From assembly GCA_030704615.1 (NCBI GenBank), contig CM060734.1, positions 56,234,001 to 56,298,000 on the forward strand: a stretch of DNA of 64,000 nucleotides, written 5' to 3'. This stretch comes from Takakia lepidozioides. Lineage: Eukaryota > Plantae > Bryophyta. Of this stretch, positions 13,681 through 64,000 are shown piece after piece; the first letter of the stretch is position 1; each line of letters begins with the position of its first letter. Position numbers and translations under genes: made by a program. The notes below the pieces were generated by a model. That model had not been told where the DNA came from. It was given only the letters and a program-made list of their open reading frames with translations, and made no database searches.

Positions 13681-13853
13681 GTGGAATTCATAGGGTATGG
13701 AATTACTTCATTCGTGTTTAATCATTGGCTTGCCTTCTACTTTGACTCCTTGCCAAGTATATCATACACATGACTTCCACATCAACAAGTTTCTTTCATG
13801 AAATGAGGCTTCAAGGATTCTTGTACAAACAGACAACTGCTTCGGACAACTCT

Positions 13854-23640: not shown

Positions 23641-23703
23641 CGGATTGATATCTTTGCGGATCTGGTAGTACCTAGCCCACAATTCTTTGTTGGTTTATAA
23701 CAC

Positions 23704-34600: not shown

Positions 34601-35226
34601 TAGGGTTGGGGTGTTTGCTGGAGCAATTCTAGGCTGTCATTGTCAGCTGCTAGCAGCAAGGCAAGGATGTATGCATGATTTTTGCAGAGGCATGGATAGC
34701 TGAAGGAGCAGGGATAGAGTGTGGGTCCAGATTCATCCCTGGGTAGATGGTCAACTGGAAGCTGCAGCAGCAGCGGCACAGGCACTGCTAATGATTCAAC
34801 ACATTTCACCCTGTTTTTCCCTCTTATCAGAATCGGCCCTAAATTTTCATGTTGAATTCTGCAAGTTAGCTGGTTGAGAGAGCCTTTGATAGTTTGGAGT
34901 GACTTTGACGTGATACTGCCAATGTGACAACAGGAAAGTATCCAGAAACAGGTAACAGAGATGAGGAGAAGCAATGGAATGAATACTTTTCTGACCCCAG
35001 TCAATGGTGGGACAATCGAGGCAAGAAGGTGAATGCCTGTTGGATTATAGAGAGTAGCGGATGCAATTGAGCATAGGAACTAGTGTGATGAGTTGAGTTG
35101 GGTGTTTCCTAGAATAAATCTAGGCTGTCATCGTCAGCTGCCGGCAGCAAGGCAAGGATGTATGCACGATTTGTGCAGAGGCATGGATAGTTGAAGGAGC
35201 AGGGATAGAGTGTGGGTCCAGATTCA
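31695..35226. repeat. Complex tandem array of ~0.5-0.6-kb diverged units
   Basis: cagctgctagcagcaaggcaaggatgtatgcatgatt-like anchor near 31805, 34074, 34644 and 35134. The blocks gatggtcaactggaa and cagtcaatggtgg recur. 31700-31760 matches 33718-33778. Confidence 0.85.
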
Positions 35227-38200
35227 ACTCTGTCTCATTCACGAGATTGGTAGAAAATATAACTGCCATGGATCTGACCTTGACACCAAGTGGCCGAGGG
35301 ATGCGTTTCTGTGGTATTAACTCCATTTACACTTTGGTATTTGTATCAGTAGTAGTACCCCCCATTGACAGGAGGAAGAGACAGATATGGTGATGTACCA
35401 AGAGGGCTTGGGTTGAAGTATCCTCCAGGCTGTAAACCTCACACAGAGCTTGGATGAAAAGAAAAGGGAGGACATTCCTTTTGTGGAATTACAGGTTATC
35501 TTGGTGTGTATTCAATTTTCATCTAGGTTGAGAGCTGCAGGCTATGTCCTTAATCCAGACCTGGCTAAAGGTGCTAGCATTGGGCTCTTCATGCTTTTTT
35601 TCTCAAAAGAGGCACTCAATGAGTACTTTGACAGTGGTCCCAAGACACAAGTTGCAGTGGACCTGATGCTTCCCTACTTGACGGTATGCCTCCTACTTGG
35701 TTTGTTTTGGCTTGGTCATCAACAGCTCTCTGGATTGCTTATATTCTATGTTTACCCTGCAGCAGAACCGCATAAACCCCCCACCTCTCTGGGTGGTCTC
35801 TTTCACCCTTTTGTATGCCACAAGCAAATGTCTCCAGGAAGGGGACACTATAACCTCTCACATGCCCAGTGAAAACATAAACCTCTACTTTGAAGCTCTG
35901 TATAGAGCGGAATTTCAAGTTCTTATACATGTCGAGTCTGTCAAGAAGTTTGTGTTGCACTGCCGTATCCTGAAGGGCACAAATGTTTCCTCCTGCCCCC
36001 TCCCACCCTTTCTCTGCATTAGAAATTTAGGCCTGACATTTGAAGATCCGCATTGATGATCTAGAGATGAGACAGAACTTTGTCTTGAGTCTCATTTTAT
36101 TGTGTTCACTGCTGTGCAGGGCAAGATCACCCTGGATTTTGAGGCAGAAGTGACTGATGACAGAGACTCTGTTTCTCGGGAAGGAGAGGTGGGGCCTCCA
36201 TCTTTCCAAAGACTTTTGAATCCGGCCAGACTTGCTCTAACTTGAAAGGCACCTTGCAGTCTAGGAGAAGAGTATGAGAAAATCGGAACGTAATGCTGGT
36301 TGAGGTTCTTGCCTGTGGACTTTGCAGGATCCACCTAGCTGTGGGTAAGGGCTTGGCCTACTGAGATTGGTTATGGGGGCTTTTGAGTATCCATGGGAAG
36401 CTTCAAGCCACAACAAATGCCAGGATTCTATTAATGAGTGGCTATCAAGAAGTTTCCTTGTCTCCTACTTGAGGTAATAGGAGTTAACTGTCAAGGCTCA
36501 GACATTGTAAGATACAGTGGTTCTGGCGTGCATCATGCATCTTCATCTCCCATCTTAAGCTAGCAGTGGCCTTCCTATGCCAGGCTTTTGAGAATGGCGT
36601 GGAGCGCATAGTGGCTATAAAGGTGAAGGAGGGGACCAGCCAGGATGCGTTGACGAAATGGTGAAGGCTTTGAATGATTTGAATGAAGTTCCTGAGTTGA
36701 GCTCCCTGCTGGTTCAATTAGCTGCTGGTAGGTTCTGAAGACCTGACATTGTTTTACTTGGCTTCCACTATTTCGTCTATTGATGTTAAGGTCCATGTTA
36801 AGGTCCATGGTCCATGGTTTCGAGCTAACTTCCTGTTAAGCGTTTCACAATAGATGGGAGTGTACTCTGCACGACATGGTACAGCATCTAGACACTCCGA
36901 TGACAATGCTCTTGAAAAATGTCTCGCTATTCCATCAACTAGAACACAAATTTTGATTGAGAGGCAGTTAATGACCATTCTCTTCATAACTAGAAGTTTC
37001 ACCATAGTTGCCTTGACCATGAAGTCTCATCATTGAGCATGTGTTAATTAGAGGGGTGCCGCATCCCTTAAAAGGATAATACCAAGTTTTGAAAAGAGGG
37101 GATCCCAAGGAGAAGAAGACAGGAATTCATTACGTGTATCCAATATTCCCAAATATTTTTCAGAGATGGAGTCCCTCATGCAGGCTAGCTGATAAGCACT
37201 TTGGGTCCTCCTAGCTGAAGACTGCTGCTACCTCACATATCGAAGTATAACCAGTGTGCAAGAGTGGAATTTTGATGTCATTGATTGTTGGAGTCCTTTG
37301 GATAGTAATTTGTTTGGAATCTACGTAAATTGATGATCTCTCCAGGGGCAAATTTCTGTACGAGGGGAGAACGATACACTGTCGGTCTTGTCGCACGCTG
37401 CCCTTCCGGTTGGTTGAAAACACGCCCACTTCTTGGTCTCGCATGACAATTGAGGTTATCCATGTTTCATCAAGGCAAACTGACACCTCTCTCTCCCCAG
37501 TGTCATGAAGTTTCCCTGATTTTGTGCCTCTTTCCCATAATATTTTGACGGGAGTTGTTGGGTGGTTGTTGCAGTGGAGGATTTGGCGGTGTACTCCAAA
37601 CACCTTCTCATTTTGATGTAAGCTCTCTCAGGGTGTGGCTGTCTCTCTCTTTGTGTAGAGCTGTATGGTCTGTAAATCTCTGCATGTTAAACTTCATTTT
37701 CTTTCATTTCCTTTCTCTGCAGTTAGATTTACTTACATCCAAGAGCAAGGTCTTAGCACCGGATTCTCCCATTGGATCTTATATGAGCTAGTGCAAATGC
37801 AAGAAAACTATGGAAAAGGTCACTAACGTTTGCACATGTATCACCTGGACTGCAGGTTCTATCCAAAAAAGTGTGGCCAATTACTGAGGCCACTCTGACT
37901 GCAGACTACGTCCTCGGTCAGACTGGGGGACGGACGTCTTTGCTGAAGAGCCCCGTCTAATAGAGTTTCCACGTTTATGTACAATATAGAGTATGGACTC
38001 TTGATTTTCCCTCCAGACTCCCTGGTTGCTACAGTGGAGACCTCAACCGGCAACAATGACTCAAGTTTTCTCAATAATCTCAGAAAGGGCTTGCCTAGAA
38101 TTAACGTTGGCTCTCTTAGCGGATTATGATCTTGTTGCCTCTCCACCTCCCCTGGTTTAGTCTTCTGCTGGAAGGCTCTGGATTTCTGATGATGTTCTGT

Positions 38201-38832: not shown

Positions 38833-40206
38833 TGGGGACGCACTAATTCATGAGATCAAGCTTTACCCTCCAACCTCTTGTATCTGTAATAAAGTTCCTT
38901 TCTTTTTTCTCGTTTAGTTCATTTTATCATTGGCACCTGAGTCTGCTCGCTTTGATGTACATGTCAAAGTTGTGATGAAGCGTTCGTGTGATTAGTCTGG
39001 GCTTTTAGGGCTGACGTGATGGTTTGCATAACTTTGCTGGGGGTTATTTGTGGGATCAGCACATGAATCGTGACATCATTTGCTCGTGAAATACGGTTAA
39101 CAATCAACTTCAAAGCCTGGGCAGCAGAGACTTGAAAACTGTACTGAGTTTTTTCAACACCCAATCACTCGGCTGAATGAATAACAAAGTTGGGCACAAC
39201 GTTCAAAGCATCACTATTCTAGTGTTCAAAGCATCTTGGCCTCGCTGCAGTTTGCACACCAATATCAACAAAGCTGTCTGCTTCCATGTAAATCTGACCA
39301 ACAGATACAGTAGAACTTCCTCTCAATCCTTGTCTCGTTGGAGGGATGTGAAATACCCCTTAATGTTGCAAGCCACCCACCATTGAAGGTCTGATCTCCA
39401 AGGACAACCTGTCGCTGGAGCTGCTAAACTATCTACCCACAGTGGACTGAAATCGAAGAAAACTGTGCACCTGTATAAAACTCTTGGTGTTTTGGAACCA
39501 GTGACCTTTGAAGTTTGATAGAGACTGTGCTCACTTAGCATTGTGTAACTAGGACACTCAGTTTTTCAGATTAATTGACTGATTGCACAGAGAGCGAATG
39601 TTCTAAGTTGAACTTTGTTTTAGGGGGCTGCACGGGGTGTAAGAGAAGCCTTGAACATTGGAAGACGTACAGCTTGAACTCTGGAGGAAGATGGAGGGGT
39701 GGAAAAGGCACAACACCACAGGGAGAGGGATTCCATGACTACAGCTTTTAGTGCAGCATAGGCCTTGATCCTGCCAGCAAATAAATCCCAAGCACCAGAT
39801 GCTGACCAGGGATGCACCAGGGATCTGGATGCTGACCAGATCTACAATTGCTGACCAGATGCTGACCTACTGGCTTTGGACGCTCCTTTATACAAACTTT
39901 TAGGCTTCTGCGCACATAAAAATGGAATGAGCAAGCAATTCATTTGGTAGTTTAGCTGTGCAGATACGACACAAAAAAGGGTTGCTATCTCCCACGTCTC
40001 TCAGTTTCAACCAAATTATGGCACTGCAGGCAGCTTAGGCTATCCAAGGTAAATATATAGGTACTGTATTACTGACCACCAAATCCACCTAAAGTTCCAC
40101 TTCCAGTCTGACCAAAAATCAGCCATGGAAAGAGAAATATGAAAGCTTAACATGAGAAATCCATCATTTTACGACACTGTGGAAAGGGAGATCCATGGGA
40201 ACGCAC

Positions 40207-42548
40207 CTGTCCTGTAGACATCCCGAGACGGCTTCTCCTTGGTCGAGCTTCTGACTTTTCTTGAGCAGCTTGGGCTGTTGCTAGCTTGCGTAGGCTGGGT
40301 CTGTACAGCAAAAGTGTACGCCCAATTTGCCCTACAATTTGGGCTTCTGTCTTGTCCTCCAATTCCCTCACAGTGTCATCTAGCTCATCAGAACAGTTGT
40401 CCAGTACCCTCACCTGTTACAATGTAGGATGATAATCAAGAAAGAGGACATCATGTCCTACGAATACAAGCACACCTCATGTAGCTCAGGTCACTCGAAC
40501 ATTGGGGCAGCTTACTTCAAAGGAAGATGGAACACTCATCCTTGTTCCATTTCAATGATGGACACCATTGTGTAAAAGGAACCATCTCCTTTCCTAGAGG
40601 AAATTGTGAACTCGGAAAAGACGCAAAACGATACATAATGGAAAATAAACAAAAGGACTTATAATATCAACAGAATGCCCAAAGAGAGGGAGACAAAAAG
40701 AATGTACAAGAAGACAATTTCCGTAGCCTTTTGGCCATAGACCCCATGCCCAAATTTGGGCAGAAAAAGAGGAAGACAAGGCAAGAGAGAGAAACGATGA
40801 AATGGTACTTCAAAACGTCCGCGGAGAGAGAGATTGAATATAGTGGAAAAGGTAATGCTTTGCAATGACACACATGTTGGCCAACCATGTGGCCATTGGC
40901 CTCCAAGGAATGGAATGCCTCTAGCTCGGTGGAAATCTCAGTATGGAACTTCCATACTCTCTCCAAGCTAATGATATTCTATTTGGAGACTGACTCGTCT
41001 CCAACATGAACGTTCCATTGAGTGGTGAGAGACAGCCCAACAGGCAGACAAAGAAACAATTGGGAGGAGGGCAGGGAGAGAGATGCCTTGATGAGCTCAT
41101 TGGCCTCCAAAGCATCACTGATCGCTGTGATAACAGTTGGAGTGACTCCCCATTTTCCCACCTGCCAACCCAAAGACAAACACATTGAGGCCCACGTTAG
41201 ACTCGAATTGTAAGTGAGAAAACAAAAAATTTATTCAATCCATCCGGTAATTTGCAAGAGACTTTGGGAATCCCCAAAGGACTAAGGGGTTTTCCTCTAA
41301 CAGCCACAATGGGCAACATAGATTGTGCTGGCCCAACAACATAAAATTTGTGACATTGGTTTCAAACAAGAAATTCCTACACCCGAGATTCAATTTGTGG
41401 GTGTCACAAACTTGAAATTACTCCAACCTCAAGTGGTAAGGTCTTCATGCGACACCATCACAAATTTATCTTCCATATCTCGCCCAAACAAATGTTGCAC
41501 CAGGAGATGCATTCTTCTATAGTCTTTCTTCCGCATCTTCTTCAATACCTCTTTCAAAATTTGTGCGAAGCAAAGGTGTCACTCATTTGTGCCAGTCATG
41601 ACAAAAGTCACAATTTGGGCTCACAATTTTTATATTGCCCATTTGTGACATTCCTCATTATGTGAAAAGAGCCTATATGCTGTGATGCCACTTGGATAAA
41701 AGGTAATTGAGGATTGATTCGAAGTCTGGCATAGACATCACATTGACAACATCAGTTGAGACAACCACAACTTGACTTCAAGGCTTGCTTGCACCCCACC
41801 CGAGGATTGCTTACAACGCTAGCTAGTTGTGGCCTTGCCAAGCTTTAGTACTCTTTGCCTATCTTCAGCTTCCGAGGGGCTCCACCTAGTTGTGCTGTAC
41901 GGATGGATTGTCATTTTGGTATTGTATTGACATTTCTTGCCTTACCAAGGTTCACAAATCTGGGATGCCTGCTATTTCAAGAGGGAAAAGAAGAATGAGG
42001 CGCACTGTAATTGATCCAAGAGACTTCTCTTTTTCTCTTCCTGGTGAGAAGAGAGAAAAAGGCGCACCAAGACAGAAAAGGAGGGTGGAGAAACAAACCT
42101 GGTGCACACAAATGTCTTTGCCTAGTTGGTGCGCATATGCCCTAAGCTCCTTCTTCTCCTGGTTCCCCAACAGCCGAAACGAGCGCCTAACCACACCCTC
42201 CCTACCTCTCTCTCGCACTTCCAGCTTCTCATCCATTTGGTCGCCGTCATCTTCATAGTCGTCTTCTTCCTCTATCTCTTCACTTGAAGCTTGAAGAGAA
42301 TATCGAGATATACTAGGAGACTTTCCATAGCCATAACTAAGTTTTGGCAGAGAAGCAAAAAGAGATAGAGGAGGTAGGGGTTGTAGGCAATGGACAGAAA
42401 TGATAGTGGCTATGGCTGAAGTAGAAGAAGAAAGAGGGCGGCCACAGTAAGTCTGCGAACAAAACGACGATGGCAGCTCGCACCGGGAGAGAGAGCAGAG
42501 TCTGCAATTAGGGCTTCCTAGAAACTCTCCTCTAACCATCAACGCCAT
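40207..42548 (-). CDS. Plastid-targeted single CRM (CRS1/YhbY) domain RNA-binding protein, CFM4-like; exons 42548-42099, 41161-41087, 40413-40207 (last exon uncertain)
   Basis: Ser-rich transit peptide and acidic linker, then EKKELRAYAHQL...Q|VGKWGVT...ALEANELIK|VRV...IVGQIGRTLLLYRPS, the CRM consensus, joined in frame. Confidence 0.88.
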
Positions 42549-42825
42549 CCTTTACTGCTCCTGCGGAGTGCTATATATTCTCTACCTCTCTTCCTCTCGC
42601 TGTCTCCCGCACTAGACCATTTCGAGGACAGCAACATGAGACTTTGCATTCACACCCACGCTCCAAGCCAACAACCTCTCCCAGTGGAGGAAAAAAATTA
42701 ACCCTGCAGAAATGAGGACTCAATCGTATGAGTAAATTGGTCAGCCTTAATACTTAATACTGAATACTTATACTTTACACCTAATCCGTGTCTGTAGAGA
42801 CCAGCAAGGGAGTGGGCGATGGCGG

Positions 42826-45726: not shown

Positions 45727-48700
45727 ATGGACGTGGAAGCAGAATGCGATGATATACTAAAAACGGGAAGCTGGATTATACGGCCTCTTCAGCAAAGTTT
45801 GCAAACACCAAACCAGGACCCTTCAACACGAAAGACCTCCATTGGAAGAGAGACATGCAATATGGTTATATGGGTGCGCGAGTGAATGTTCAGAAGGCCT
45901 GCATACCGTGGGATAGAGTTGATGACTTTCTCCTTGGAGAGGAAAGTTTGGTGGACTACTCCACTCAGTTTTGGGTGAATGTCCATACTAAAATGCAACC
46001 CGACATGCTAAATGAGCCGAGAGCCAACAGTTTTCTGAACAGTATCATGTGTGCACCATCCTCATCGTTCTTTTGTAGTCTGATTGCATGTCTGTTGCCA
46101 TTTTTCGTACCCACGTACTGCAGAAGTTGATGGATATCGATTGTGATTTCTATGTCCAGGTATCAATGCTGCTATGGTCCAAATGACAAACGCACCAACA
46201 ATGCAATAGTGAAGGATCTCAAACTGAAACATGGAGGACCTCTTGTGGGTGCTCAAACATCTCACCCTCATAAAGGCCCAAGGAGAAATAAGTCGGAATA
46301 TGGAGAGTCTTACAAGTGTGGTTGCCAATGCTGTTTCAGGGTCCGACAATGCTATCTCGCCCCAATATTTGTGTCCTCACGTACTACAACAATATGGAGC
46401 ATACAGACGCGAAAGAGAACGCCTGTCATGGGAAGTCCGCTGAGTTCAGGAACACTCGTCACGCCTATACACCACACATTAGCGAGGAATTGAAAGCATG
46501 GGTCATGAAGTGTCTGTACTGAGGCATGTTAGTCATCATGATGGAACATAAAGAGCACGTCATGAACAACACCGGGTTGGGGGATGCATGGACACGGGAC
46601 GATTTTTTGTTGGAGCAGGATGTGCGCAACCTGGCCAAGAAATGGGCGTGGCAAACGTTCAAAAAACATGCCAACAATGCAGAGAGTGTCCACATGTGGA
46701 AAGACCAGAATCCGAAATCGGTCTTCTTCTGTCAAGAGGAGAAATTGGCGCCAACATTCAAGCACTATGATAGCGACTTAACATTCACATTCGGCATACA
46801 GACTGAGTGGCAGAAGAAGTGAATGCTTCAATTAGGCCATGCCCGTATCGTTGCATGCGATGCAACCTTCGGGACAAATCACCACAAGGTACTCTTCATC
46901 CCTTTCACAATTTATCCACTTGCAGAACTATTGGATGTACGCACACTGGCAGCATCTGATATTATGCATTTGAACAGTTCCCATTGTACACGTTGATGGT
47001 CTTCGACGAATGGCTTAACGGTATATCTGTTGCGTACATCATATGCACGCGTGAGCGGACAACAGACCCGGTGTCGTGGATGGCAGCCTTGTGGGACTCA
47101 CTTTTCGCAGAAATGTTGGACTAGCGACCCAATGCCTTCATTGTGGACGATGCCGACGCTGACGCCGAAATAAACGCCATTACGTAAGTTTCACGTACCC
47201 TCCTGTACACTCGCTTGCAAGTCCGCTGCGTGCATCCATTGTCTGTCTCTTTGACAAGTCCCTTGCCATACAACGCACTCCTGGCTGCAAGTCCGGCCCG
47301 TTCATTTCTGCAAGTCTGCAAGCAAACCACTCCGTTATCAATAATGTCTTCTAGCGAAGTCCGCTGGAAGACTCACTTGCGCAAGTATGTTGCAAGGTCA
47401 GTCTGCTCGGGTGTGCTGCCAGCAAAGTCTGGGTAAGTCTGTTGCCGGTCTCCTAAGGGCAAATCCGCTGGTAGGCCAGTCCACCAGAGAGGACTGTTCG
47501 CAAGCAGTCCGCTGCAAGACTCACGTGCACCAGTCTGCTGCGAGCTCAGTCTGGTCCACCAAGTCCGCTGGCAGGCAAATCCGTCGGAGGGGACTGTTTG
47601 GAAGTCTGTTGGCAACCCAGTCCACTCGGAATGCCCTTTGGCCAAGTCCGTTGCAAGACTCACTTTACGCAAGTCCGCTGCCAGATCAGCGTGGTCAGGT
47701 CTACTGGCGGTCTCGTGAGGGCAACACTCATGGTAGGTCAGAGTGGGCGAGTCTGCTAGCTGAATCCGTTGGGCACGTCCACTGGAACAGGCGGACAGAC
47801 CAGTCCACCAGAGAGTCTACTGGGTTAGTGCCCAAGTCCACCGGCAAAGTCCTCTTTGAAGTCTCTCATGTGGGCATGTGTACTTTGCAGGGCTGTTTTC
47901 CGAGGAGTGCTCATTTTCTTGTGCCTTTGGCATGTCCAGCGGGCTTGGGTGAAGCAATCATGCGCAAAAACCAAAGATCCTATCACTGCCGCAAACTTGC
48001 TGAAAGATATGGGAGACCTCATGTACTGTAGAGGTGGACCAAGCAATCCCAAATAAGGTCTTGCGGGGTAGCAACAACGCTCCGAGACATGAGAAAGAAA
48101 TATCCGAATGGGCATGAATTTCTGGACTACATCGATAAGGAATGGCGTCCTAAAATAGCAATGTGGTGTACATCAGCTCGCCATGTTCCGCATGTCAGTC
48201 AAGACACAAACGCTAGCATTGAGGCATACATGGAAACTTGAAGGCAAGACTGAGGATGGGGAAAGGCAAAATGACTGGGAGTAGAGCGGTTGGCTCACAT
48301 GGGAACTCATAGGTCATGTGCTAACACACTACTGGTATTCAATTCACATGAAGATGCACGGATTCATAAGGAATGACAAACAGGAGAAGTACATGTCCAA
48401 TTTTGTGCTTGTGGCACGCGACATCCCAGCTTGCAATGTCACTCTTCCGTTCTATCCAGGGCAACCAGCCTATGTTCTAAGCACCAATCACCCAAACACA
48501 ATTTATATTGTTTACAACCCCGGATGCAAATGGGCTTCTTGCACTTGCCCATGGGCAATGAAGGGCAATTTGTGCAAGCATCAAGTCCGAGTCCTAAAGT
48601 TGCTTCATCCACACTTGCAGGATGGACTCATAGTGTGTGTTTGTGGCACGGCGCTGGGAATCATTCATGGAGCATTGCATAATGTGTTTAGGGTTCATGC

Positions 48701-49136
48701 AAGTGACGGCGACGAAGAGGGTTTGGGAAATGCAACAGAGGGCCCTTCCACATATGACTTCCCCTATGATGTGGAGCCTGTCCTGGTACCATCCTCCATG
48801 GATGAAGAATTTGCAGACATACTTCGCATTGTTGGTGACGATAAATACCTAGAGAAACATGTGTTGTCTTCTCTTTGTATCTGTAGGATGCAGCTTGTTG
48901 ATATTCTCGCCAAGAGTGCTGTAGGAATGTTGCACCCTGCGGCAGCAAAGAGCTTCCATCCTGTAAATGACAACAACAATATGTCGATGAAAAGAAAACG
49001 GGATTTCGTTGAGGCATGGAAAATGCGACCCAGAGTCTTACGCAAAACAGAGAAGAGGGTTGGTGCCCCAACACCTGCAACACACATATACTCCTCAATC
49101 CGGAGGGTTGCAGACCGTATACCAGTTGTAAAGTAG
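45727..49136 (+). pseudogene. Mutator-like (MULE) transposase with SWIM finger, spliced and degenerate
   Basis: KCGCQC, ACDATFGTN, FPLYTLMVFD, FIVDDA, LCLWHVQRAW, TNASIEAY and CTCPWAMKGNLCKHQ (SWIM). Confidence 0.88.
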
Positions 49137-52233: not shown

Positions 52234-53590
52234 TGAAGCCAATTTGTTTGTTTTGTTTTGTTTTGTTTTGTAGCGTTGAGAGGTCCCAAACCGTGAGGCC
52301 TGGGTGCTGGTGCCTGGTACTGTTGGAAAGCCCTCGAGGAGGAGAGGTGCACCGGCTTGGTCTCATGACTTTTGGACTTGCGGTGTGGGAAATATGGAAT
52401 TTCAAGTACTTTTGGTCGCTGGAAATTCATGAAAAATAGCAAAGTGGGCATTCCTGGGACAATGGTGGGACCCTTGACAGGAGATATATCAAGGGACAAG
52501 TCTCCGGTTCAAATCTGGTTGTAGCCTTTCTGGAAAAAAACGATGAGATATGGCTAAAATGAATTTCAAGTACTTTTGGTCGTTGCACAATGATTGGAGC
52601 CTCAACATGAGAGATATCAAGGGAAAGGTCTCCGGTTCAAATCTAGTCGTAGGCTCTGTGGAAAAAAAATGATCAGATATGGCTTGCTTCATATATTGAT
52701 GCACTTGGACTTAGATGACCCTGGATACTTGGGCCAACGGCACAGGCTACCCTATCAATCTATGAAGGAAGCCAATTTGTTTGTTTTGTTTTGTTTTGTA
52801 GTGTTGAGATGTCCCAAACCGCGAGGCTCCAACACTGGTGCTTGGTACCGTTGGAAAGCCCTCGACGAGGAGGGATGCACCGGCTTGGTCTCATGACTTT
52901 TGGACCTGCGGTGTGGGAGATACGGAATTCCAAGTACTTTTGGTCACTGTACATTCACGAAAAAATAGCAAAAATGGCAAAGTGGGCATTCTTGGGACAA
53001 TGGTTGGAACCTTGACGGGAGATATTTCAAGGGAAATGTCTCCGGTTCAAATTTGGTCGTAGGCTGTGTGGAAAAAATCTTACCTAGATGACATTGGACA
53101 CTTGGGCCAACGGCAAAGGTTATCCTAGAGGTTGCATTTGGGCCTCGACATAGGAGTCACACTTTGATACATAGGGGATTGCACTTGGACTTAGATGACA
53201 CTAGACACTTGGGCCAACAACACAGGCTACCCTAGAGACGGATACATAGAAGATTGCACTTGGGCTTAAATTAATGGCCTTGACATAGGCCGCGACGCAC
53301 TTGCCTACATTGGAAATTGCACTTGGTCTTAGATTTCACACATAAGCCAAAGGCGTAGGCTACACTCGAGGTCGCACTTGGGCCTCAACACAGGAGACGC
53401 ACTTACATATGAAATTGTACTTGGTCTTAGATTTCAATTCTTCACACACATGGGCCAAAGGCACATGCTACCCTAGAGGTTGCACTTGGGCCTCGACATA
53501 GAGGACGCACTGGGATACATAGATGATCTTACATTTGGGCTTAGATGACACTGGACACTTGGGCCAACAACACATGCTACCTTAGTTATG
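52234..53590. repeat. TE subterminal-type tandem repeats
   Basis: A ~300-bp block at 52234 is repeated at ~52768. Multiple ttgcacttgg..ttagatgacact.gacacttgggccaa units at 52700-53590. Confidence 0.75.
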
Positions 53591-53703
53591 TTGCAAAATT
53601 CAATCTTTGCATTACATAATAACAACGTTGCAGATTTTAGTATCCAAATCGAAGCAAGCTTAGTTAAAAGAAGACTGATTGCAACCCTCATCGTCAAATA
53701 AAC

Positions 53704-54246
53704 CAGCTGTCGTGCGCATACATATCGCTACACAACTACATCGTTGTCCAAACCACACCACACATATATGCACAATAAAGTAGTCTGCCACAATGATATG
53801 AAAACTAAACTCACACTGTCTCTATTGACACAAAACACGAAATACAATACAATCACTCGTTAAAATAAGAGTCGAGCTAGGGGCACCCCAAGGTATGGGG
53901 ACTCCACCCCACAACATCATGCTCTCCCTCCATAAGTACACTAAGATACTAAGCAGCGAGGGAGCTCGGTCGGGCAGGCTCAACTCGAAGATGAGCCGCA
54001 CGACTGACAAGCTCGTGAAGATAAGATGGTTCAGGTGTCAAGCTAAACTTGACACCTGACTTAACACTTGAACTAATTCCAAGTGTTAAATACAAATAAC
54101 TAGATTTATTCTAGTTAGTTTCACACTGTGTTTATTTAACTTGACAGCTGTCGTGCGCATATGTATCGCTATACAACTACATTGTTGTCCAAACCACACC
54201 ACACATATATGCACAATAAAGTAGTCTGCCACAATCGCCCCCCTAG
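53704..54246 (-). repeat. 3' LTR region and PPT of the DNMT-bearing Gypsy element
   Basis: Minus-strand PPT ctaggggggcgat then TGTGGCAG at 54233. A ~90-bp direct repeat occurs at 53704-53794 and 54145-54235. Confidence 0.7.
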
Positions 54247-54494
54247 CTGGTGGTTAGGTCCCTCTAACTCCATATAAAGATGTAATAGCCACAGCCGTAC
54301 TAAGTCCTCTATCACTGTCCCTATTGTACTCAAATTCTATATACCAAGAGGCTGGGTACAAGAGCAGCCCCATCGTTAGTCGCCGTCTTGCAATCTGTGA
54401 ACTTGAACCAGGATCTTGTGTGTTGGTCTCCTAGTAGTTTGGCCTTACATTTCTTGTTAGCCTTCCATGGTTGTATCCACTCCCACTATCCAAT

Positions 54495-54628
54495 GCAATG
54501 TGGACATAACCAATCCCCATCAGGAACCATCTCAAGAGGTGAGTCAAGCATCCCATATGCCAACCTCTAGAGCATTGATCACACACCAGCATGGTGGCTG
54601 CCCCTCTAGCAGACCCACACAACATGCA
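54495..54628 (-). pseudogene. PHD finger at the integrase C-terminus
   Basis: CMLC...MLVCDQCSRGWHMGCLT/PLEMVPDGDWLCPHC gives C4-H-C3 after correcting one frameshift. Confidence 0.9.
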
Positions 54629-55022
54629 CCTCAAACTTGCAGGTACCACTGCCAGGTTTGGGTCAATCCTGCCATCGACATTCGGAAGGTGACATGGCGC
54701 GCAATTACGCATATGGTCCTTCCAAGTCATGCCATCCCGACCCTCCAAGATCAAGATGCCTGAGGGCAGTACCTCTCGAACCTTCAAAATAACACGTCAT
54801 GCAGTCACATCCAGGGTCGTTGGAGCAGTTTGCTGCAGAGAAATATAGTCACCAGGGTGAAATCTCTGAACCCCAGGACGATAGCCCCCACCACGTATGG
54901 TAGCATACCTCAACGTATCACGACGTTTTGCAATGGCAAGGTTCTCAAAAGCCATGGGCATGACTTTCTTAAACAACTCCGCGTGCTGACCACATGCACG
55001 TGCCCACACGTCCGGATCGTCA

Positions 55023-56772
55023 AGACCTATAGATACAGTGACATGGAGAGGTCCTTGATTCAGATGGGGACTTAGGACCTTTGGGAGGCTGGTTTGGTGG
55101 AGCTATCTGGTGGAGGGTATGCTTCAGCCACAGTGATGCCACCCAAGAAGGATGTCTATGGCAATTGGATGGAGAGATGTATGTGCGGTGATTACCGACC
55201 TGTAAATCGTCAGACCAAGTCCAATAGGTATGCCATGCCGACACCAAAGGAGATCTTTGATGCCATTGGGCATGCCGAGGTCTTTAGCACTTTGGATTTA
55301 CGATCCGGATATCACCAGTTGCCGATCAAGGAGGCGGATAAGCAGAAGACGGCATTCTGGGGGATCAATGAGCACGGGAAGGATTGCCTATACCAGTGGC
55401 GGTTCTTACCATTTGGGATTAAGAACGCTCCTGCAAAGTTTCAGAGAATCATGGACAGGATTCTAGCAGGGGTGGAGTTTGCTCGGTGCTACATAGATAC
55501 CATCATCATCTTTAGTGCTATGGTGGAGGAGCATGAGAGACAACTTCAGGTGATATTTGAGCGCTTGAGGGCGCACGGATTGCAGTTACATCCGGGGAAG
55601 TGCAAGTTTTTCCACAACCAAATTGAGTATCTGGGTCACATGATATATCCTGGAGGATTGGGGGTATAGCAAACTAAGGTAGAGGCCATTGCACAGATTC
55701 CACGCCCCACGGATGTGAGCCGAGTTCAAGCTTTCATGGGGTTGGCAAACTATTATAGACAGTTTGTCAAGGGATTTAGTGCCAGTGCAAAGGCTCTAAC
55801 CAAGCTGACCAAGGTGGACCAGGAGTGGCAGTGGGAAGATGAGCAAGAAAAAGCTTTTCAAGAGCTCAAGGCGAGGTTGACCTCGGCGCCCATCTTGAGA
55901 CGACCTATCGGGGGCGTCCTTTTCAGCTGCATACAGATTGGAGCATGCTGGGGCTTGGAGCGGTGTTCACACATGTGGATGATGAGGGAAGAGAGTTCGT
56001 AGTGGCTTATGCTAGCCGCTCGAACAACGCTGCAGAGGCTAAGTATAGCTCATATGAGGGAGAGTGTTTAGCTGCAGTGTGGGCCGTGGCACACTTCAAG
56101 TGCTATCTATACGGCAATCTCTTCACCCTTGTCACGGATCACCAGCCACTCAAGTGGTTGATGGAGTCAGACAAGCTTACGGGGAAGCTTGCACGGTGGG
56201 CACTCATACTTCAAGAGTATGACTTTCAGGTTGTGCATCGACCGGGTTTGGTCAATCGGGATGCGGATGGGTTGAGTCGCAATCCATGCACGAGCCAACA
56301 TGATGACACTGGAGCTCGGTGGCATGGTGAGACGGACAAGGAGATGGTGCCCGGATGGCATGCATCTACATTTTCTATGTATCTTGGTAGCGGAAGGCCA
56401 GATTGGACCTACAACAGGGATGACTGTAGACCAAGTGTCTGAGGACCCTTAGGCCAGCAATGAGCAAGGTGGCGCCAAAGATATACATAAGGATTCAGCT
56501 GTGTTGGACTATCTCCGCACTGGAGACACGACAGCCACTGTGACTGCCAAGGAGAGGGATCGGATCCTACATCGAGCCAAGAGGTTCAAGTGGGAGGGGA
56601 CACACCTGCTCCGAGTGTGGGAGGATGGTCGAGTGAGGATTATGCCTCACCCAACACAGTGGACACGGTTAGTGCGGCATGCCCATGAGGAGTTGGGGCA
56701 TTTTGGGGTGCGACGCACTCATAGTCTATTGCAGGGGCAGTATTGGCGGCGTGGTATGCACACAAAGGGTCT
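55023..56772 (+). pseudogene. Inverted RT - RNaseH - integrase N-terminal segment of the same element
   Basis: MCGDYRPVN, LDLRSGYHQ, PFGIKNAPAKFQ, YIDT(D), TDWS..GLGAV, TDHQPLKWL, HEELGHFG. AGACC/GGTCT junction microhomology. Confidence 0.92.
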
Positions 56773-57291
56773 CTGAAAGATTGGCGTGTCAGTGGCCAAT
56801 TCAATGCGAATCTCTTGACCCTTCAGTGCTCCCAAGTTCTTCAAACTAAAGGCAAAGCAGTTCCTATAAGCCATCAAGAACCGCCGTATACGTCGTCTCT
56901 CTCCTCCGGTGACTATAGGTCCAACATCAGGCTCCCAGTTGTCCTCCGTGACTGCAACCTTGAGTCCAGCAGGTTTAGAGGTAGAAGACACGTCCCGTGG
57001 TTGTTATGTTGCAACCTCTTGAGCAGTGACCACTGCCTGCTCTGTCAGTGACAATGTCTCATCCTGCCCCATTATCCCATCCTTGAGGACCTCCTCAACT
57101 CGAGAAAAATCCCCAACCTCATCCATCATCGCCGCCTTGGCTGCCAACTCCCTCTGAACCTCAAGCACCTCCCACGTGTGCCATGGATGTGGCCTGCACC
57201 TCGTGGTCCTCACCTGTTCGCCCCCACTCGCCGCCTGTACCATCTCGGTAGGCAGAGAGACCATCAAGGGCTCCTTAGCCATAGCCAAGCT

Positions 57292-58224
57292 GATAATCCA
57301 GGTCAAGGAATTGAGATCCATTGCTTGCCCCAACACCTGACGACGTGATGCCTCAGAAAGAGATGGCACCGCCGTGGTAAAACCCATCGGCCGCTCGCGC
57401 TCGTCAGCATTGGGCTCCACTAATTGCTGCAACTGGCTATCCCACAAGAGGCTAGGTCCACCATCCCGGAAAGCATGAAATCCTGGAAAGCTGAGCAGTG
57501 TAGGTAATGCGGCTCGTGGGTTACCCATCTTATTGACCACTGCCAAAGGTGATCGGTCATCGTGTCTCACACGCTGAGACTGTCTCCCTATGTCCAAAAT
57601 GCTATCCACCGTCAGGTTTGGTGGCCGCTACATCCCATCAAATGCACGCTTGAGCAGTGCAGGTGGCATCAAGTTGGTCCACCATAGTCGTGGGCGATGA
57701 GCTCGTGACCCCACTGCAACTGCATCCAACAACACTGCTGACCCAAACCAAGACCGCACTTGATGTATACTGGCCATCACCTTGGCCCGCGAATCACCCA
57801 TCAATGGCACATTCTCCAAGATATATGCCGGAGAGTTTGTCTGCTGAAGCTGTAAATAGCGCAGGATCCTCAACATCTCCCAAAACAGGCGTGACCTTGA
57901 GTCTTGTAACCCATTGGCATGCCCGGCTGATGAATGCCCTTGGCAGGGCCAACCTGCCACTACCAAGCGAATAGGGCCAAGCCACTCCAAATCCTGCGCC
58001 CCCAGCAAAGAGATGTCTGCTGGCAAGGCTTGCTGGTATCCACGAACTGCAGACACTGGCAACAAATCAGGGTACTGCTGCACCAACTGAGCAACATGGC
58101 GCAGTGAGACGCGCCGTGCAGTCTCATCCATCTCCACATATAGGTAACGTCAAACTCGTACATATGCCTGCAGCACTGCAGCCAATCCAGTGCTGATCCC
58201 GCCAAACAAGTTCAGAAGACATAT
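57292..58224 (-). pseudogene. DNMT3-like C5-cytosine DNA methyltransferase domain inside the pol frame
   Basis: Motif I LNLFGGI, II YVEMD, III ADI, IV VAGWPCQGHS, VI ILENV, VIII AHRPRLWWTNL, IX ERERPMGF, X RRQVLGQAMD in canonical order. Two in-frame stops. Confidence 0.93.
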
Positions 58225-61200
58225 GCCTTCATCCGGGCACTGCCACACAAGAGGTGTGGTATCCAATGGCGACAACTGAGGTGGTCCTGGTGCAATCACC
58301 GCACTCTCCTCATCTCCTGACGGTACAAAGGCCTCTACCCAGGCTTGTTGCACACGTCTATCAGCAGCCTACTGCAAATCCTTGCTCGTACCCCACAATG
58401 GAGTGTGAGCAACCATGGCAGGCAACTCCGCCGTACCATGCATGTCATCCTGCTCTGCTGGAGATGGCACATCCTCTGCATGGGCATTGCCCTCCAGCAA
58501 CTCTCCAGGCCAACTAACTGCAGCTGTGAAGGCTGCTAGTGTTGGCATCTTGCCCCGCTGGGCAGCAGCAACACCCCCAATGAATGTCACAGGGAACTGT
58601 ACACGACGACCATCCCTTGACTGCCATCCAGGCCTGTAGGATGCTGACTCCTCCTAAAAATCTAGGGTGAAGCCCATGGAATACAACATTGCCCCACCAA
58701 CGAGGACATTGTAAGAGACCGCGTCTGTCACAATGGCCTTGGCTCGCATTACTGAGCCATCTATAGGATGATCCGGCTGTAGTCTAATGGCCAACTCACG
58801 TCGTGTCATGCCCTGAGCCTGCTCTGATCCTCCCAGAGATGTCTGTATCTGGAAAGGACAAGGCTCTATATCCACCTCTATGAGGCCCAAACCTGCAATA
58901 TCAGCTCTGCCCAACATCAGTGGCTGAGCTCGCGAGTCCAACAAGACCCACAGTGGCCGGTACCTCTTGCCTACCGGTCCACTCAAAGAGAAAATGTCAT
59001 CCTGGTTGTCTAACAAGACAACTCCAGGTGTCACCATGGCGCGCTCAAAGGCTGGCCTAGCTGGCAGCTCCGTCAACCTGGCAGCTGCAGCTTGCCATGG
59101 CGCAGCCGTGGCAGTCTTGACCCTCAAATCCGAGGATCCCTCTGCCACTACACCTTCCACTAATTCCGCAGAAGATGAAGTGACCTCCCCACTCTCGCAG
59201 AGTGTTGCTGCTAGTCTGAATACTGCAGCTGGTCTTACCCCCGGCGTCGCAATCATGGTTGCCAAGAACAGTGGGGCCTAACACACAGAGGTGGCCACCC
59301 CCAACAACACACTAGCTGCACTAGCCTTGGCAGCAGGTGTCAGTGCTGCACGTGTAGCTCTCCCCAATGGCACAATAACATCCGCCTCGGTATCCATCGG
59401 GCGAGAACTAGGTGCCATGGATGGCGTCGACACTGTCTCCGCCAAGATGAATGATTGAGGCAACCTAGCCTGACGGCTTGCCTCCCCACGTTGTGGATCC
59501 AACTCCACCGCTGCACCTCGTGGCTCAGGAACTCGTGCTGCTCCTCGAATGACGGCTGTAGCAGAATCCACATGTATAAGTGGCCATTCAAGTGCTTCCC
59601 CGCACATAAATCCCATGCCTCCCATGTCTCCTCCATCAGGATGACGCTACTGAGGAGGAACAGGAGGTGGACCCTCAGGTCTTGGAGCTGGTACCGCCAG
59701 AGCTGTGGCCATGGCAGCAAGCCGTTGCTCTAGCTGCTGAAGCCGGTTGGCCATGCCTTGGTCAACGCCCTTACCTCCACGTCCTTGGCCATAATGTGCT
59801 TGCCCTCCTCCTGCACCTCGTGCCTAACCATCTCGTCCTCTCTAAGGTGCTCCACCTTGCCCTCGGCCACCATTGTTCCCTTGGAACTGGCCTCGCCGCA
59901 ACTCAGGGTGCAAGTCATAATACTGGGCATCTCTATGCCCATACTTGCCACAATGCCCACACTGCAACTGTGCAGGCTGTGCTTGTGTCGGCCTTTTGCC
60001 ACTCTCTGGGCAATCTTTCTTGACATGGGGTCCTCCACATGTCCAACATACCACCCCTGGTTGCTATTGGCCTGCAAAAGAAGCTACTGGCCTCTGCACC
60101 TGAGGTCCCCTGTAAGCTCCATGGAATTTGGGTTGGGCAACCTTGCCCCCCTGACCACGCTGTTGGGCAGTCCCTTGTGCCTGTTGGCTGGCAGCTGCGC
60201 CTCGTGCAGACATGTCTTTGCCAAATCCAATGGTAACAACTCGCTCCTCCACCATGTTGAGCTCAATCCGCTCAGCCAGCAGAAACACATATGCTAATGT
60301 GGGTTGGGCCGCTTGTAACAAGGTTGCATCCCGCACCCTTCTCCTGAGCTCCTTGTCCAAAATTCCATATTAGAACTGGACTGCCTAAGGTTCAGTAACC
60401 CCTTGGGTCACACTTATCAAGCGCCTCATACGAGTGTAGGCCTCTCGCAAGCTCTCACTGGATTTGCGCTGGAAGTCTTGCAAACTTCGCAGCTTCTCTG
60501 TCCGTACGCCTTGGTAGTTCCTCCGCAACTCTTGGAAGAACTCTACCAATGGGTTGAATCTAGGCACATGTGTTGTAGTCGTGGCAGGAGGAGTAGAAGC
60601 ACCTTTTGAACTGGTACCACCTACAGAAGTACCGACACTGCTTGTTCCACTACTAGTGCTGGCAGTGGGAGATATTGGTGTTGATGCAACTACTGGTCAC
60701 GTCGTGCCTCGAGTAATGGAGACGTAGTCAGGTGACCAATACATCCTCCACTCCTCAATCTCTGCTTCATATCCTCACCTGAACTCGTGGTAATCGTCCA
60801 TAGGCGGGCCTTCCAAATGCTGGAACAGTCCCTTACACGCCATGAATGGGGTGAACAGCTGTGGATTGCGCATCTGCTGCAAATCACACCAGCTGTCGAA
60901 CTCCTGGATAAAATCATCCAGCTCGATTGTGCCCACAGCTCCAGAGTACCTATGAGGCCCCTTGGTAGCTCCATACATCTCCTCCATGTCGTCCCACAAT
61001 AATGACGAAGAAAACTTCACACCTGTTGATGAAGCCTCCGAGTCTGTGTCAGACTCTACACTAGTTGAGGGTGGAGGCGAAGGTGGTCTGAACCGAACAC
61101 CTCATCTTGTGAACCCACTCTCACTGCTACTGCCTGTAGCTGGACTCCCCTCAAAACCCTTGGGTAACTCTGTGATGACACTCACAACCCACACCTCCCC

Positions 61201-64000
61201 CACGTGATACTATAAAGCTCTAGTACTAATTCTAATAGTGACACGGGTGGGCACCTGTTGCGGTTTAAGGGTCATATCCCAGTGGCTCAGGGCACCTGCA
61301 CCTGCATCCACCGCAAGAACTCTTATGGTTGGCTGATCATCAACCCAGTCTCACCATAAAAGAAACACTGGTGGTCTTGCTGGTCATCACTCCAGCCTCA
61401 CCACCGACAGCATACTCTAGGATTGACCGTTGATCAAATCCGGCCTAATCCCTACGAAAGCAAGCGCCCACACAAAACCAACATGGCGCACAGTCAAGCA
61501 TGCAGGTGTTGGGGGGGATCCAAACACAAGAAATCAAAACATCAACACCCCCACACCAAAATCCATCTGCAGTGCTGCTCCTGCAGAATACCCCAACCCA
61601 AAAACCCGGACTGACTCTTGCCTCCACCTATGGAAAGGTTTTGGCCTACCGAGAGGGTGGAAAGCTATGGGAAGGAGAGACTAAAGCAATTCCTAAACCC
61701 AGCATGCCCTCATCCCGACACCCTTCATTTCCTCTCTAGCCATACACTAATGTCAAAAAGTGACAGGTGAGTTACAAACAGACAGCTAAGTGATCATCGC
61801 TGACTTTAAACAGCTTCTTCAATAGACCTCAAATAGATGTGGGGAGGATCTAATTTACATTAGAAGAATTCTATAGATTTTTGGTCAGGTCCAAAAACTA
61901 AAACCAGATCTAGGTAGGTAGATTTCCGCATTCTGTAGGTCCCTGCACAAGTTTTGGGTCAAATGGCCTTGGTATGCCAAAGTTATGGCCAAACAGGCTC
62001 TATCTAATTTAAATTAGATCAAAGAACGAATTTCTTTAATTTTTCACACCCAAAACGTTCTCGACATTAAAAGCTGCTCCCAAGTCATCTACGAGTTCCC
62101 AACAATGTAGTTCTCACAGATTCCCTGGATTTCACCTACAGGTGTTTCAAACATACACCAGTGAACTGCTCTGCTCCAGCCAAGATCTATAGCTATGCTG
62201 ACTCCGGGGCTTTGATCTTCGCATCCACTCCATCTAGCACACCCTTCCATGCCACGCTTGGCGTGCACATGCCTCAGGGAAGCAATCTGAACAACTCCAA
62301 CTTCGGCCACCCACAATGAACTCCTTCGCTCTTCATCAGGGCTGCCAAGTTCTATTGCAAGCACATGTAAATGAATTACGTGGAGCCTGAGTCACACATC
62401 TGCCCCTTCAGTTGATCACTTGTCTATCAAGGCATTTTCCCACACCTAAGTGGGTTATACCCTCCTTCACCTTGCTGTCCCACCACTAGGAGAACTTCAT
62501 GAGATCAGCCACAACTATCTCATACCCCGGAGTTGCCCTACATGTGAGGTCCACCAACATTCGGCTGTCCCTTCCATTCACACCTTGCTGGGCATACCCT
62601 GTATTAATCACACTCCCTCAGACCAGATTTCAGCCACGTCATCAGTCGCTCCAACCTTCTCTATGCTGCTGCAACTGACCAGTACAGTGATTAAACAACT
62701 CGAGGTGCTTGCTTCTTGAGATCCCAAAGCCCATCAGATCTGACCAACATGATCGTAGACATACCCTTTGCCATCATCCAACAGGTGGAAGCTCAGTCTC
62801 CTTTATGTCCTGACTCAGATTCGCAATCCGCACACTATCCATTAAATTTGGCCCGAGTCGGCTCTTCCTTTCACCACGATCCTCAAGCTTGGCTTGTCCT
62901 GGTTCTCCATTTTAAAATACTATTCTGTATTGACAAGAACAACCTCCAGGGAGTTTGCCAAACTGGTGTTAAACTATTCCCCCAAGACCAAGAAAATCAT
63001 ACGACGTCACCGTTGCGGCCACTGGACAGACCACCTTCTTGCTACATTCATGCCCGCATACTCTGCTGGAGCGAACTGATGAAAACCCTGTCACTTATCA
63101 GACCTCCGCGCTACCCGCATGCCACCAAATGAGGACTTCCAAACAAAAACGATCACTTGTCAACGTAACTATGTAGCTTGTTAAGCGACTGTCGAACATA
63201 TAACGACCAGTTTGCCAAGGTAACGAGCTCCCCACTGCTCTGATTTGCCGAGGATCTTCCCATAATCATCTTTCACACTCCCAGTGCAAGACAACCGTGG
63301 CCTGGGCTCCCTCCGCTTCTGTTAAATATGCGTGCCTGCCTCCGGCCACCTAACCACCAACTGGCCACTTGATTGATATCATTCCCTGTAACCACCACCT
63401 TTGAATCAAAGGTCTCAGGAACATGGTTCAGTACAGCCGTTGGTCATATTATCATATCGTCATATTTCCTTGCTTCTAGGTCAATGTGATCATCGACCCT
63501 TTAGAACCTGCCTGATAAGCTCATATTCACAGGTCTATAGCCGCATCGTCATATTCTTTCACACACTGCCATTAATTGGGTCTTTAGCTGAAACCCAATC
63601 AACTAGCTTTTGCAGCCGCTCCTCACTAATACCACCGCAAAGCAAACATGCATACTAGACAAAGTCCCCGAGTAAGACATATTTCATGAGCAACCTTCAT
63701 CGGATTTCTGCTCCATCATAAACAACATATTACCTGCATACAGGTACTTCCAGAGTGAAGGTTACTATGAGCATCTGTGCATAGCCTCAATCTCTATGCA
63801 CAAAGCGCCTGCTGGTACAAATTGGTTAACTCTTGCGGACTGCCCTCTCCCAACCTAAAGGTTGATTGCTCCCTGCAACCTTGGTGTCAGACATGGAGCA
63901 GATTTGATTGACCCGTAAATCCCCTACCCTGGTCGCTGGGAGTTCTGAGATGCTATGAAGTGATGTAACCAGTCGACCACAAAACGCATCAAAGAATATT

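Follow-up and report, generated by a model that had tools for sequence, protein, structure and literature searches.

A Gypsy retrotransposon lineage of bryophytes and green algae with a DNMT3-like methyltransferase and, in the branch that includes bryophytes, a conserved, probably leaky stop codon

A 64,000-nucleotide (nt) stretch of Takakia lepidozioides (assembly GCA_030704615.1, contig CM060734.1, positions 56,234,001 to 56,298,000 of the forward strand), referred to as the window, contains on its minus strand a decayed Ty3/Gypsy retrotransposon that carries a complete DNMT3-like cytosine-5 DNA methyltransferase (DNMT). An earlier note, made from the sequence alone, had described protease, methyltransferase and the start of a reverse transcriptase (RT) at 56773-59625. 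The whole element is larger and extends from about 61720 to 53708. The seven open reading frames (ORFs) that the note had joined (59278-59625 to 56719-56991) indeed share one minus-strand frame with single stops between them and zero frameshifts, and all of its motif coordinates agreed with the letters of the window when these were re-read. From 59646 to 56776, interrupted by six single stops, this frame encodes first a protease, next a C5-methyltransferase in full and then the beginning of RT. The features of the element are listed below; the methyltransferase motifs are given the numbers I-X that, from general knowledge, we take to apply.

60988..61720, minus: 5' leader; the left end is approximate, as contig depth drops sharply beyond about 61720-61750
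59900..60987, minus: gag with start ATG at 60987, two zinc knuckles (60048, 59961) and several premature stops (Retrotrans_gag, E 0.0038)
58600..58962, minus: aspartic protease with one premature stop, 41-63% identical to relatives
57292..58227, minus: DNMT3-like C5-cytosine methyltransferase, motifs I-X unpermuted, stops at 58150-58152 and 57628-57630 (assigned by Pfam, PDB and fold)
58209-58192, minus: LFGGIS, methyltransferase motif
57951-57940, minus: WPCQ, motif IV with the catalytic Cys
57816-57808, minus: ENV, motif VI
57702-57679, minus: AHRPRLWW, methyltransferase motif
57402, minus: ERER, methyltransferase motif
57345-57319, minus: RRQVLGQAM, methyltransferase motif
56998..57006, minus: stop of ORF1 (57006-57004), conserved in the family, with a hexamer of CARYYA type; readthrough is predicted here
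56769..57003, minus: start of ORF2 (RT N-terminus), truncated by an inversion
55026..56768, plus: inverted segment with RT (two stops, active-site motif altered), RNase H (RH) and the zinc-binding region of integrase (IN)
54690..55024, minus: C-terminal part of integrase; about 616 nt of integrase core are missing ahead of 55024
54500..54628, minus: PHD finger ending ORF2 (PHD, E 4e-5), frameshift near 54540
54235..54248, minus: polypurine tract, the best-conserved non-coding stretch among relatives
54149..54233, minus: repeat B1 (TG...CA)
53795..54146, minus: repeat A2, beginning with TG two bases past B1, an arrangement shared with relatives L041, L060, L050/L053, L018 and L057
53708..53792, minus: repeat B2, with which the element ends on its 3' side; 96% identity to B1 across 91 nt

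Upstream, the frame continues through gag to the ATG at 60987, which aligns with the N-termini of the Marchantia ORF1 proteins described below. The resulting ORF1 comprises 1327 codons with 13 premature stops and has its final stop at 57006-57004. Five of the six stops in 56776-59646 are decay private to the window copy; the sixth, 57004-57006, is the ORF1 stop that is conserved family-wide. The assignment of the ORF at 56719-56991 to the RT start holds until about 56769, beyond which its tail is antisense integrase of the inverted segment. In that segment RVT_1 (E 2.5e-30), RT_RNaseH (E 9.6e-35) and Integrase_H2C2 (E 1.3e-6) were matched. In other copies, 55026 is connected to 56769 with the two on opposite strands (4/4 runs compared), and a colinear contig in run X9, from a second organism, contains the roughly 616 nt of integrase core missing from the window; therefore, inversion and deletion are private to the window copy. 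Its protease active-site motif (58944-58924) deviates from that of the family; in the uninterrupted relative L036, Asp_protease_2 was matched with E 2e-4. With 13 premature stops, an inversion, a lost integrase core and altered protease and RT active-site motifs, the window copy is dead. The family, in contrast to this single copy, is high-copy, and its copies carry the DNMT. In run X1, which may be the window's own sample, summed contig depth, a measure not equal to copy number, reached 4.6-6.6e5 across the DNMT and 0.9-1.2e6 across RT/RNase H, compared with 240-750 across the flank 62100-64000. Two sequencing runs guessed to be RNA, but possibly DNA, covered the element partially, with gaps over the DNMT.

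With both stops replaced by X, the window DNMT matched Pfam DNA_methylase (PF00145) with E 2.8e-11, and 29 of 30 matches in a PDB sequence search were DNMT3A/B/C (best E 5.8e-11). A profile of 45 sequences found DNMT3 in the PDB with E 1e-22 to 1e-17, DRM with 1e-10 to 1e-8, HhaI/HaeIII with 1e-6 to 1e-5 and DNMT2 with 1e-3. The AlphaFold model of the domain had a predicted local distance difference test score (pLDDT) of 87. Its best Foldseek match was DNMT3A (E 7.9e-14, TM 0.71), and a VIA fold search returned DNMT3B with Z 25.2 (root-mean-square deviation 2.8, 259 aligned residues). The bacterial CpG enzyme M.MpeI reached a Z of 23.4, little below DNMT3B, and this weighs against a fold-based assignment. 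Taken by sequence and model, the domain appears closer to DNMT3A/B than to DNMT1, CMT, DNMT2, DRM or bacterial enzymes, with a small fold margin over M.MpeI. Its motifs run from I to X, so that the unpermuted order seen in the earlier note stands, as does the complete DNMT3-like domain between protease and RT; DRM proteins have permuted motifs and the lower profile scores (E 1e-10 to 1e-8 versus 1e-22). The literature sources cited from here on were accessible in part, and statements about them apply to those parts. Host plant DNMT3 enzymes, for example Physcomitrium DNMT3b, share the unpermuted DNMT3-type catalytic domain, but have a C-terminal DUF3444 and multi-exon genes (PMC6453930), neither of which occurs in the window-family DNMT: the domain is intronless, and DUF3444 was not found in the proteins P0002, P0003, P0187 and P0205 or in ORF1 of L036. 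A viral origin was considered but is not favoured, as 13 viral loci matched weakly (best E 5e-13, 28-50% identity over part of the domain) and no close viral donor was seen among them.

The residues expected for catalysis are largely retained. The catalytic Cys was kept in 64/64 loci and 137/140 proteins, and motif VI retained Glu in 58/63 and Asn in 62/63 loci (167/176 and 174/177 in proteins). The window DNMT deviates at 4 of 100 well-conserved columns. Cys, Glu-Asn, the motif VIII Arg and the glycines of the S-adenosylmethionine (SAM) loop are near-invariant both in the family and in 147 distant representatives. Two points count against too strong a conclusion: the locus motif counts are biased because the loci were fetched by motif patterns, and the residue ahead of the catalytic Cys in distant relatives is Glu (ECQ) in 84 and Pro (PCQ) in 49 of 145 cases. 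On the strength of these residues, the methyltransferase of active family copies is probably catalytically active.

Relatives were found in annotated proteomes and in metagenomes. A search of longer proteins, restricted to a length of up to 2000 amino acids (aa), yielded 45 matches, including 17 models of Marchantia polymorpha (identity of up to 72%), Calypogeia fissa, two Sphagnum species, Closterium and Chromochloris. A search of shorter proteins, of which 120 of 158 matches were listed, added M. paleacea, Riccia sorocarpa and S. tenellum. One protein, P0077, is labelled as belonging to a bacterial metagenome-assembled genome and is probably from a mis-binned contig. One Marchantia protein cluster has 18 members, and the M. 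polymorpha models Mp4g09160, Mp5g06330 and MpVg00370 encode uninterrupted Gag-protease (PR)-DNMT proteins annotated as hypothetical genes. Of 67 metagenome loci, 44 had a protease upstream of the DNMT and 48 an RT start downstream, and two showed the order RH-DNMT-IN; the remaining loci end early or are deleted, and many represent one insertion seen in several assemblies. The gag-PR-RT-RH-IN order of the family and the best PDB match of L036, Ty3-G Gag-Pol (E 3.3e-98), bear out the assignment to Ty3/Gypsy. The family and its layout can be regarded as practically certain. The trait is thus real in the window genome, as had been claimed, but it is not peculiar to it, occurring also in annotated bryophyte proteomes and in algae.

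A profile search extended the set to 570 clusters with E values of 1e-30 or lower. Of the 147 rows that were classified, the majority of those with neighbouring domains had the layout RT-RH-DNMT-IN-PHD, and about 11 had PR-DNMT or DNMT-RT. Among named organisms, Scenedesmus and Chromochloris have the first layout (one of ten examined clusters named, plus the protein search). The second has Closterium as named member (5 of 10 examined clusters), and its DNMT continues into RT without a stop. The large RT-RH-DNMT-IN-PHD set includes L061:3-5564, L062, P0033 and P0249-P0390, many with ECQ in place of PCQ. The gene model of Closterium P0044 fuses Copia-type and Gypsy-DNMT parts, which are probably nested elements.

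Selection was estimated by simple Nei-Gojobori counts from 10 DNMT and 8 RT sequences picked by hand. Between the window DNMT and five close relatives, the proportion of nonsynonymous differences (pN) was 0.20-0.23 and that of synonymous differences (pS) 0.70-0.73, which is saturated, giving a ratio of about 0.1. Between families, pN was 0.20-0.25 and pS 0.64-0.73, again saturated. The unsaturated pair L036/L040 had a ratio of 0.12 at a synonymous divergence (dS) of 0.26. Recent within-family pairs pointed in the other direction, with ratios of 0.34-0.91 for DNMT and 0.46-0.64 for RT, but these mirror post-insertion decay rather than constraint. Between families, the DNMT domain appears from these counts to be under purifying selection; together with the near-invariant Cys and Glu-Asn, this answers the doubt whether the catalytic motifs are constrained.

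Unrooted trees (LG+G4, no mixture; 20 of 43 and 36 hand-picked rows; element DNMTs only) recovered the same three groups for RT and DNMT, namely a stop-bearing clade, Closterium with elements lacking the stop, and RH-DNMT-IN elements. The trees are congruent; the DNMT has travelled with its RT. Support for the stop-bearing clade was 100/98 in the RT tree; in the DNMT tree, a wider clade containing the stop-bearing rows reached only 84/86. The window DNMT branches beside a Calypogeia-Marchantia-Sphagnum clade (99/96).

The closest described system is KnitGypsy-Dnmt3 of Klebsormidium nitens (PMC5890265), which was compared by its published description only. Common to both are the Gypsy domains, split repeats as in DIRS elements (A-coding-B-A-B) and a Dnmt3-like domain that is unpermuted, lacks introns and evolves under purifying selection. 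Three differences were noted. KnitGypsy-Dnmt3 encodes DNMT and RT together in its Pol ORF, while in the window clade the two are separated by a conserved stop; the integrase of the window family ends in a PHD finger, a word absent from the main text on KnitGypsy-Dnmt3; and the window family is found in land plants, in contrast to K. nitens (PMC5890265). The K. nitens element was called an acquisition of its own lineage (PMC5890265). The occurrence of related DNMT-Gypsy elements in Closterium and chlorophytes contrasts with this view. Chlorophyte elements of this type found no mention in the accessible literature on DNMT-bearing retroelements. No named K. nitens protein was returned by our protein searches, the longer of which did not extend to proteins above 2000 aa.

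Probably, the lineage is an old acquisition of the green lineage, kin of KnitGypsy-Dnmt3, that was passed to bryophytes from streptophyte algae. Alternatively, the bryophyte elements may not have been inherited from the first land plants, but may have been transferred horizontally, either from one land plant to another or from an alga. The DNMT distance of about 0.35 changes per site between Marchantia and Sphagnum would fit such a spread, as would their grouping without the liverwort Calypogeia, although this grouping is weak (89/74). In addition, no named hornwort, lycophyte, fern or seed-plant match was among the matches listed from these word-based, length-limited searches. However, the elements of each named host genus cluster in a separate clade, synonymous sites have reached saturation between families, and the streptophyte layout is shared with Closterium, which belongs to the sister group of land plants. 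Horizontal spread is therefore regarded as the less likely course, although a serious contender, and vertical descent is preferred.

Next, the stop between DNMT and RT is considered. In 43 of 49 rows (48 loci and the window), an in-frame stop with CAR directly after it lies 14-21 codons ahead of the RT start; in L049 and L060 the stop is followed by TAR. As a control, 594 premature stops of the same elements were examined, of which 29 had CAR directly after them and 0 had CARYYA. The rows represent about six lineages that are 56-76% identical downstream. The exact CARYYA occurs in four lineages (CAACCA in the window and L001, CAGTTA in L036/L040, CAATCA in L043), and in four lineages the second codon after the stop keeps YYA while the residue changes between Pro, Leu and Ser. 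In L036, this is the sole stop in a frame of 7.2 kb, where it divides a 1369-aa Gag-PR-DNMT from a 1047-aa RT-RH-IN-PHD. The Marchantia ORF1 models are 1278-1281 aa long and end 84 residues past the DNMT (84-86 in Marchantia and Calypogeia together). CARYYA after a stop is a readthrough signal, as in UAG-CARYYA of tobacco mosaic virus and in the env-like ORF of soybean SIRE1. The in-frame stop followed by CAR-YYA is common to these cases and the window family; unlike them, its stop parts Gag-PR-DNMT from RT, with the enzyme on the abundant side. The single polyprotein proposed by the earlier note is thus correct for the domain order and the common frame, but not for an uninterrupted passage from DNMT to RT. 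Because the conserved stop separates Gag-PR-DNMT from RT-RH-IN-PHD, the stoichiometry is expected to differ from the polyprotein view, with DNMT at the level of Gag instead of RT.

The following mechanism is proposed. ORF1 would yield abundant Gag-PR-DNMT, and readthrough would yield rarer Gag-PR-DNMT-RT-RH-IN-PHD. The protease would release the DNMT with a tail of 85-150 residues inside the particle, where it would methylate cytosines of the new double-stranded complementary DNA (cDNA), so that the insert would arrive pre-marked. Because cDNA is the only double-stranded DNA in the particle, self-methylation would be the simplest role. That active copies combine a Gag-PR-DNMT frame with a leaky stop, load the DNMT at Gag level and methylate the cDNA that they produce, either ahead of integration or in its course, is, taken as a whole, a reasonably likely scenario; cDNA as the main substrate is favoured by a narrower lead. 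A different role for the same layout would be that the DNMT enters the nucleus and there has host chromatin or the insertion site as its main target, or serves as a non-catalytic DNA-binding shield or a decoy for silencing enzymes. Gag-level amounts of enzyme would surpass the need of one cDNA, and the motif IV Pro is substituted in most distant relatives. Also at odds with self-methylation, the K. nitens Gypsy DNMT gave no methylation in yeast, a result that the authors called inconclusive (PMC5890265). Against a non-catalytic role stand the near-invariant catalytic and SAM-loop residues described above, and the related DNMT3 domains of DIRS elements set new methylation at CG (PMC5890265). 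We consider these other roles unlikely, and methylation of the element's own cDNA is retained as the preferred function.

Several observations weigh against readthrough. L024 lacks the stop. L050/051/053, which represent one insertion, have it at another site with an ATG directly following. The largest family has CAACCC, one base off CARYYA, and an ATG two codons past the stop (35 of 48 rows). Finally, no consistent RNA structure was found 3' of the stop (z < -2 in two of seven sequences, +0.64 in the window). RT-RNaseH-integrase might accordingly be made as a separate protein from a spliced RNA or by re-initiation, with the DNMT still in the Gag frame. The introns by which gene models of Marchantia, Sphagnum fallax and Riccia bypass the stop, the ATG in the Sphagnum-like family and the TAG-ATG of L050 would agree with such a route. 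However, the five run-through models bypass the stop at five different junctions, as would be expected of gene finders dodging a stop, no ATG lies near the stop in the window, L001, L036 and L043, and ORF2 is in frame with ORF1 in every clean copy. Separate production of RT is thus improbable, and the conserved stop is, as judged from its context, probably read through. The divergent old copy L050/L053 (11242-11270), in which the ATG abuts the ORF1 stop, may represent another mode of coupling or decay.

The rearranged window copy might suggest that a host DNMT gene was captured just once or inserted as a nested copy, that the assembly is faulty or that the contig stems from an algal contaminant. 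These readings can hardly be entertained, since the contig depth across the DNMT matches that across gag and RT in order of magnitude and greatly exceeds that of the flank, the same layout recurs in Marchantia, Calypogeia, Riccia and Sphagnum, including named chromosome-scale bryophyte assemblies, introns and DUF3444 are lacking, and plant-type OVATE, lambda-glutathione transferase (GST)-like and CRM genes share the contig, in line with the plant-type flanks reported earlier.

The termini of the family are unusual for a Gypsy element. Instead of two complete identical long terminal repeats (LTRs) around the coding region, split repeats of the form A...B-A-B were found. Full-length relatives read TG-A ... 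polypurine tract-B-CA-(2 nt)-TG-A-B-CA; the arrangement rests on three full-length relatives, the 5' end of L014 and three 3' ends including that of the window. In the window, no 5' copy of repeat A was found in 61000-64000 (best score 34 versus 31 for shuffles). Exact 4-bp target duplications flank two of three distinct full-length relatives (L041, L060), and three of four bases agree in L050/L053. Inspection of four loci by eye revealed no tRNA primer-binding site. A symmetric two-LTR-circle model was not adopted; it predicts A...B-A-B as well as A-B-A...B, and only the first form was seen. The PHD finger of ORF2 resembles the histone-H3 readers CHD4, PHF21A and UHRF1. This likeness suggests targeted integration, in which the finger would steer the integrase by reading histone H3. 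A second high-copy, internally repetitive element at 52235-53595 adjoins the 3' end of the retrotransposon.

Other DNMT-bearing or split-repeat elements were compared. SymbioDIRS-Dnmt3 of Symbiodinium is likewise a split-repeat retroelement with a Dnmt3-like domain, which methylates CG de novo in yeast, but it has a tyrosine recombinase, in contrast to the DDE integrase (rve), TG...CA ends and 4-bp target duplications of the window family (PMC5890265). In L036, rve and H2C2 integrase matches were present and a tyrosine recombinase was not found, so that the family does not belong to DIRS. EpiLTRs of Euglena and Cymbomonas resemble it as LTR elements with a DNMT and a chromatin-reading domain; their DAM, chromodomain and DNMT4-sister DNMT were not found in the window family (bioRxiv 10.64898/2026.05.21.726589). 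Troyka elements were rejected as candidates, having CG...CG termini and 3-bp duplications and occurring in animals only, unlike the TG...CA ends and 4-bp duplications found here.

In the literature searched, which did not extend to Repbase Reports or most subscription journals, no land-plant DNMT-Gypsy element was found, in accordance with the earlier note. The accessible parts of PMC5890265 report DNMT retrotransposons from Symbiodinium and K. nitens only, with a genome table that includes Selaginella and Physcomitrella; neither Marchantia nor Sphagnum occurs as a word in its readable supplements. As far as accessible, bioRxiv 10.64898/2026.05.21.726589 mentions "streptophytes (Gypsy-DNMT3)" and leaves Marchantia and bryophytes unnamed, and PMC12344493 likewise gives streptophytes as carriers. 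Because this term formally includes land plants, the supplements of those papers may already hold such sequences. The family is not described in the accessible parts of PMC10952607, PMC11982613, PMC12859917, PMC6453930, PMC12440569 and bioRxiv 363937. What appears new, as far as sequences can tell, is the extension of DNMT-bearing Gypsy elements to land plants, the Gag-side enzyme, a stop that is probably leaky and a lineage with members across the green plants. For the Gag-level enzyme amounts predicted by the stop, no description was found in the accessible literature.

Why retrotransposons keep a silencing enzyme has been a question since 2018, and the known cases were in algae with little genetics. 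Marchantia polymorpha is transformable and has uninterrupted Gag-PR-DNMT relatives; therefore, activity, sequence context and substrate are directly testable there. Loss of CG methylation in this species de-represses many elements. Copies of the window family could confound studies of bryophyte methyltransferase mutants and DNMT gene counts. The most comprehensive version of our proposal is an ancient green-lineage Gypsy clade with an active DNMT3-like enzyme, in whose bryophyte-containing branch a programmed leaky stop put the enzyme on the Gag side, so that every particle would be loaded and new copies would integrate pre-methylated. This combination is tentative and, on balance, rather less likely than not. 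If it were true, the elements would, when expressed, contribute new cytosine methylation in Marchantia and Sphagnum that has so far gone unrecognised and does not depend on MET1, CMT, DNMT3 and DRM of the host. Replication with split repeats and a DDE integrase, apparently without a tRNA primer, would then add another mechanism not yet described.

The window contains additional features. Transposon remains at 39-3700, 6545-9109, 15552-18941 and 48285-49133 comprise two Gypsy fragments, for which no DNMT match was noted, a hAT transposase, Copia and a SWIM-domain (MULE-like) element. A decayed long interspersed element (LINE) at about 22400-23900 lies just downstream of lambda-type GST-like exons at 24382-25095 (minus), whose best PDB matches are poplar-type lambda GSTs (E 1.4e-4). 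An ORF at 21086-21921 (plus) encodes a divergent OVATE domain (E 6.7e-5, under the Pfam cut-off). OVATE proteins and lambda GSTs are land-plant families. Judged from the sequence, the host is very likely a land plant that does not flower. A spliced gene with a CRS1/YhbY (CRM) domain and a transit-peptide-like N-terminus is located at 40150-42551 (minus). The region 31696-35229 has several imperfect direct repeats with a spacing of 250-570 nt and resembles a tandemly duplicated coding unit. An intronless ORF of 239 aa at 26557-27273 (plus) had no Pfam match and seven homologues; the named one is from the rotifer Adineta ricciae (37%), the others are 55-67% identical, and the patchy distribution may indicate a horizontally moved gene. 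Its end overlaps the second arm of an inverted duplication (13840-14735 and 27056-28001), whose arms of about 900 nt are 84-100% alike and lie 12-14 kb apart.

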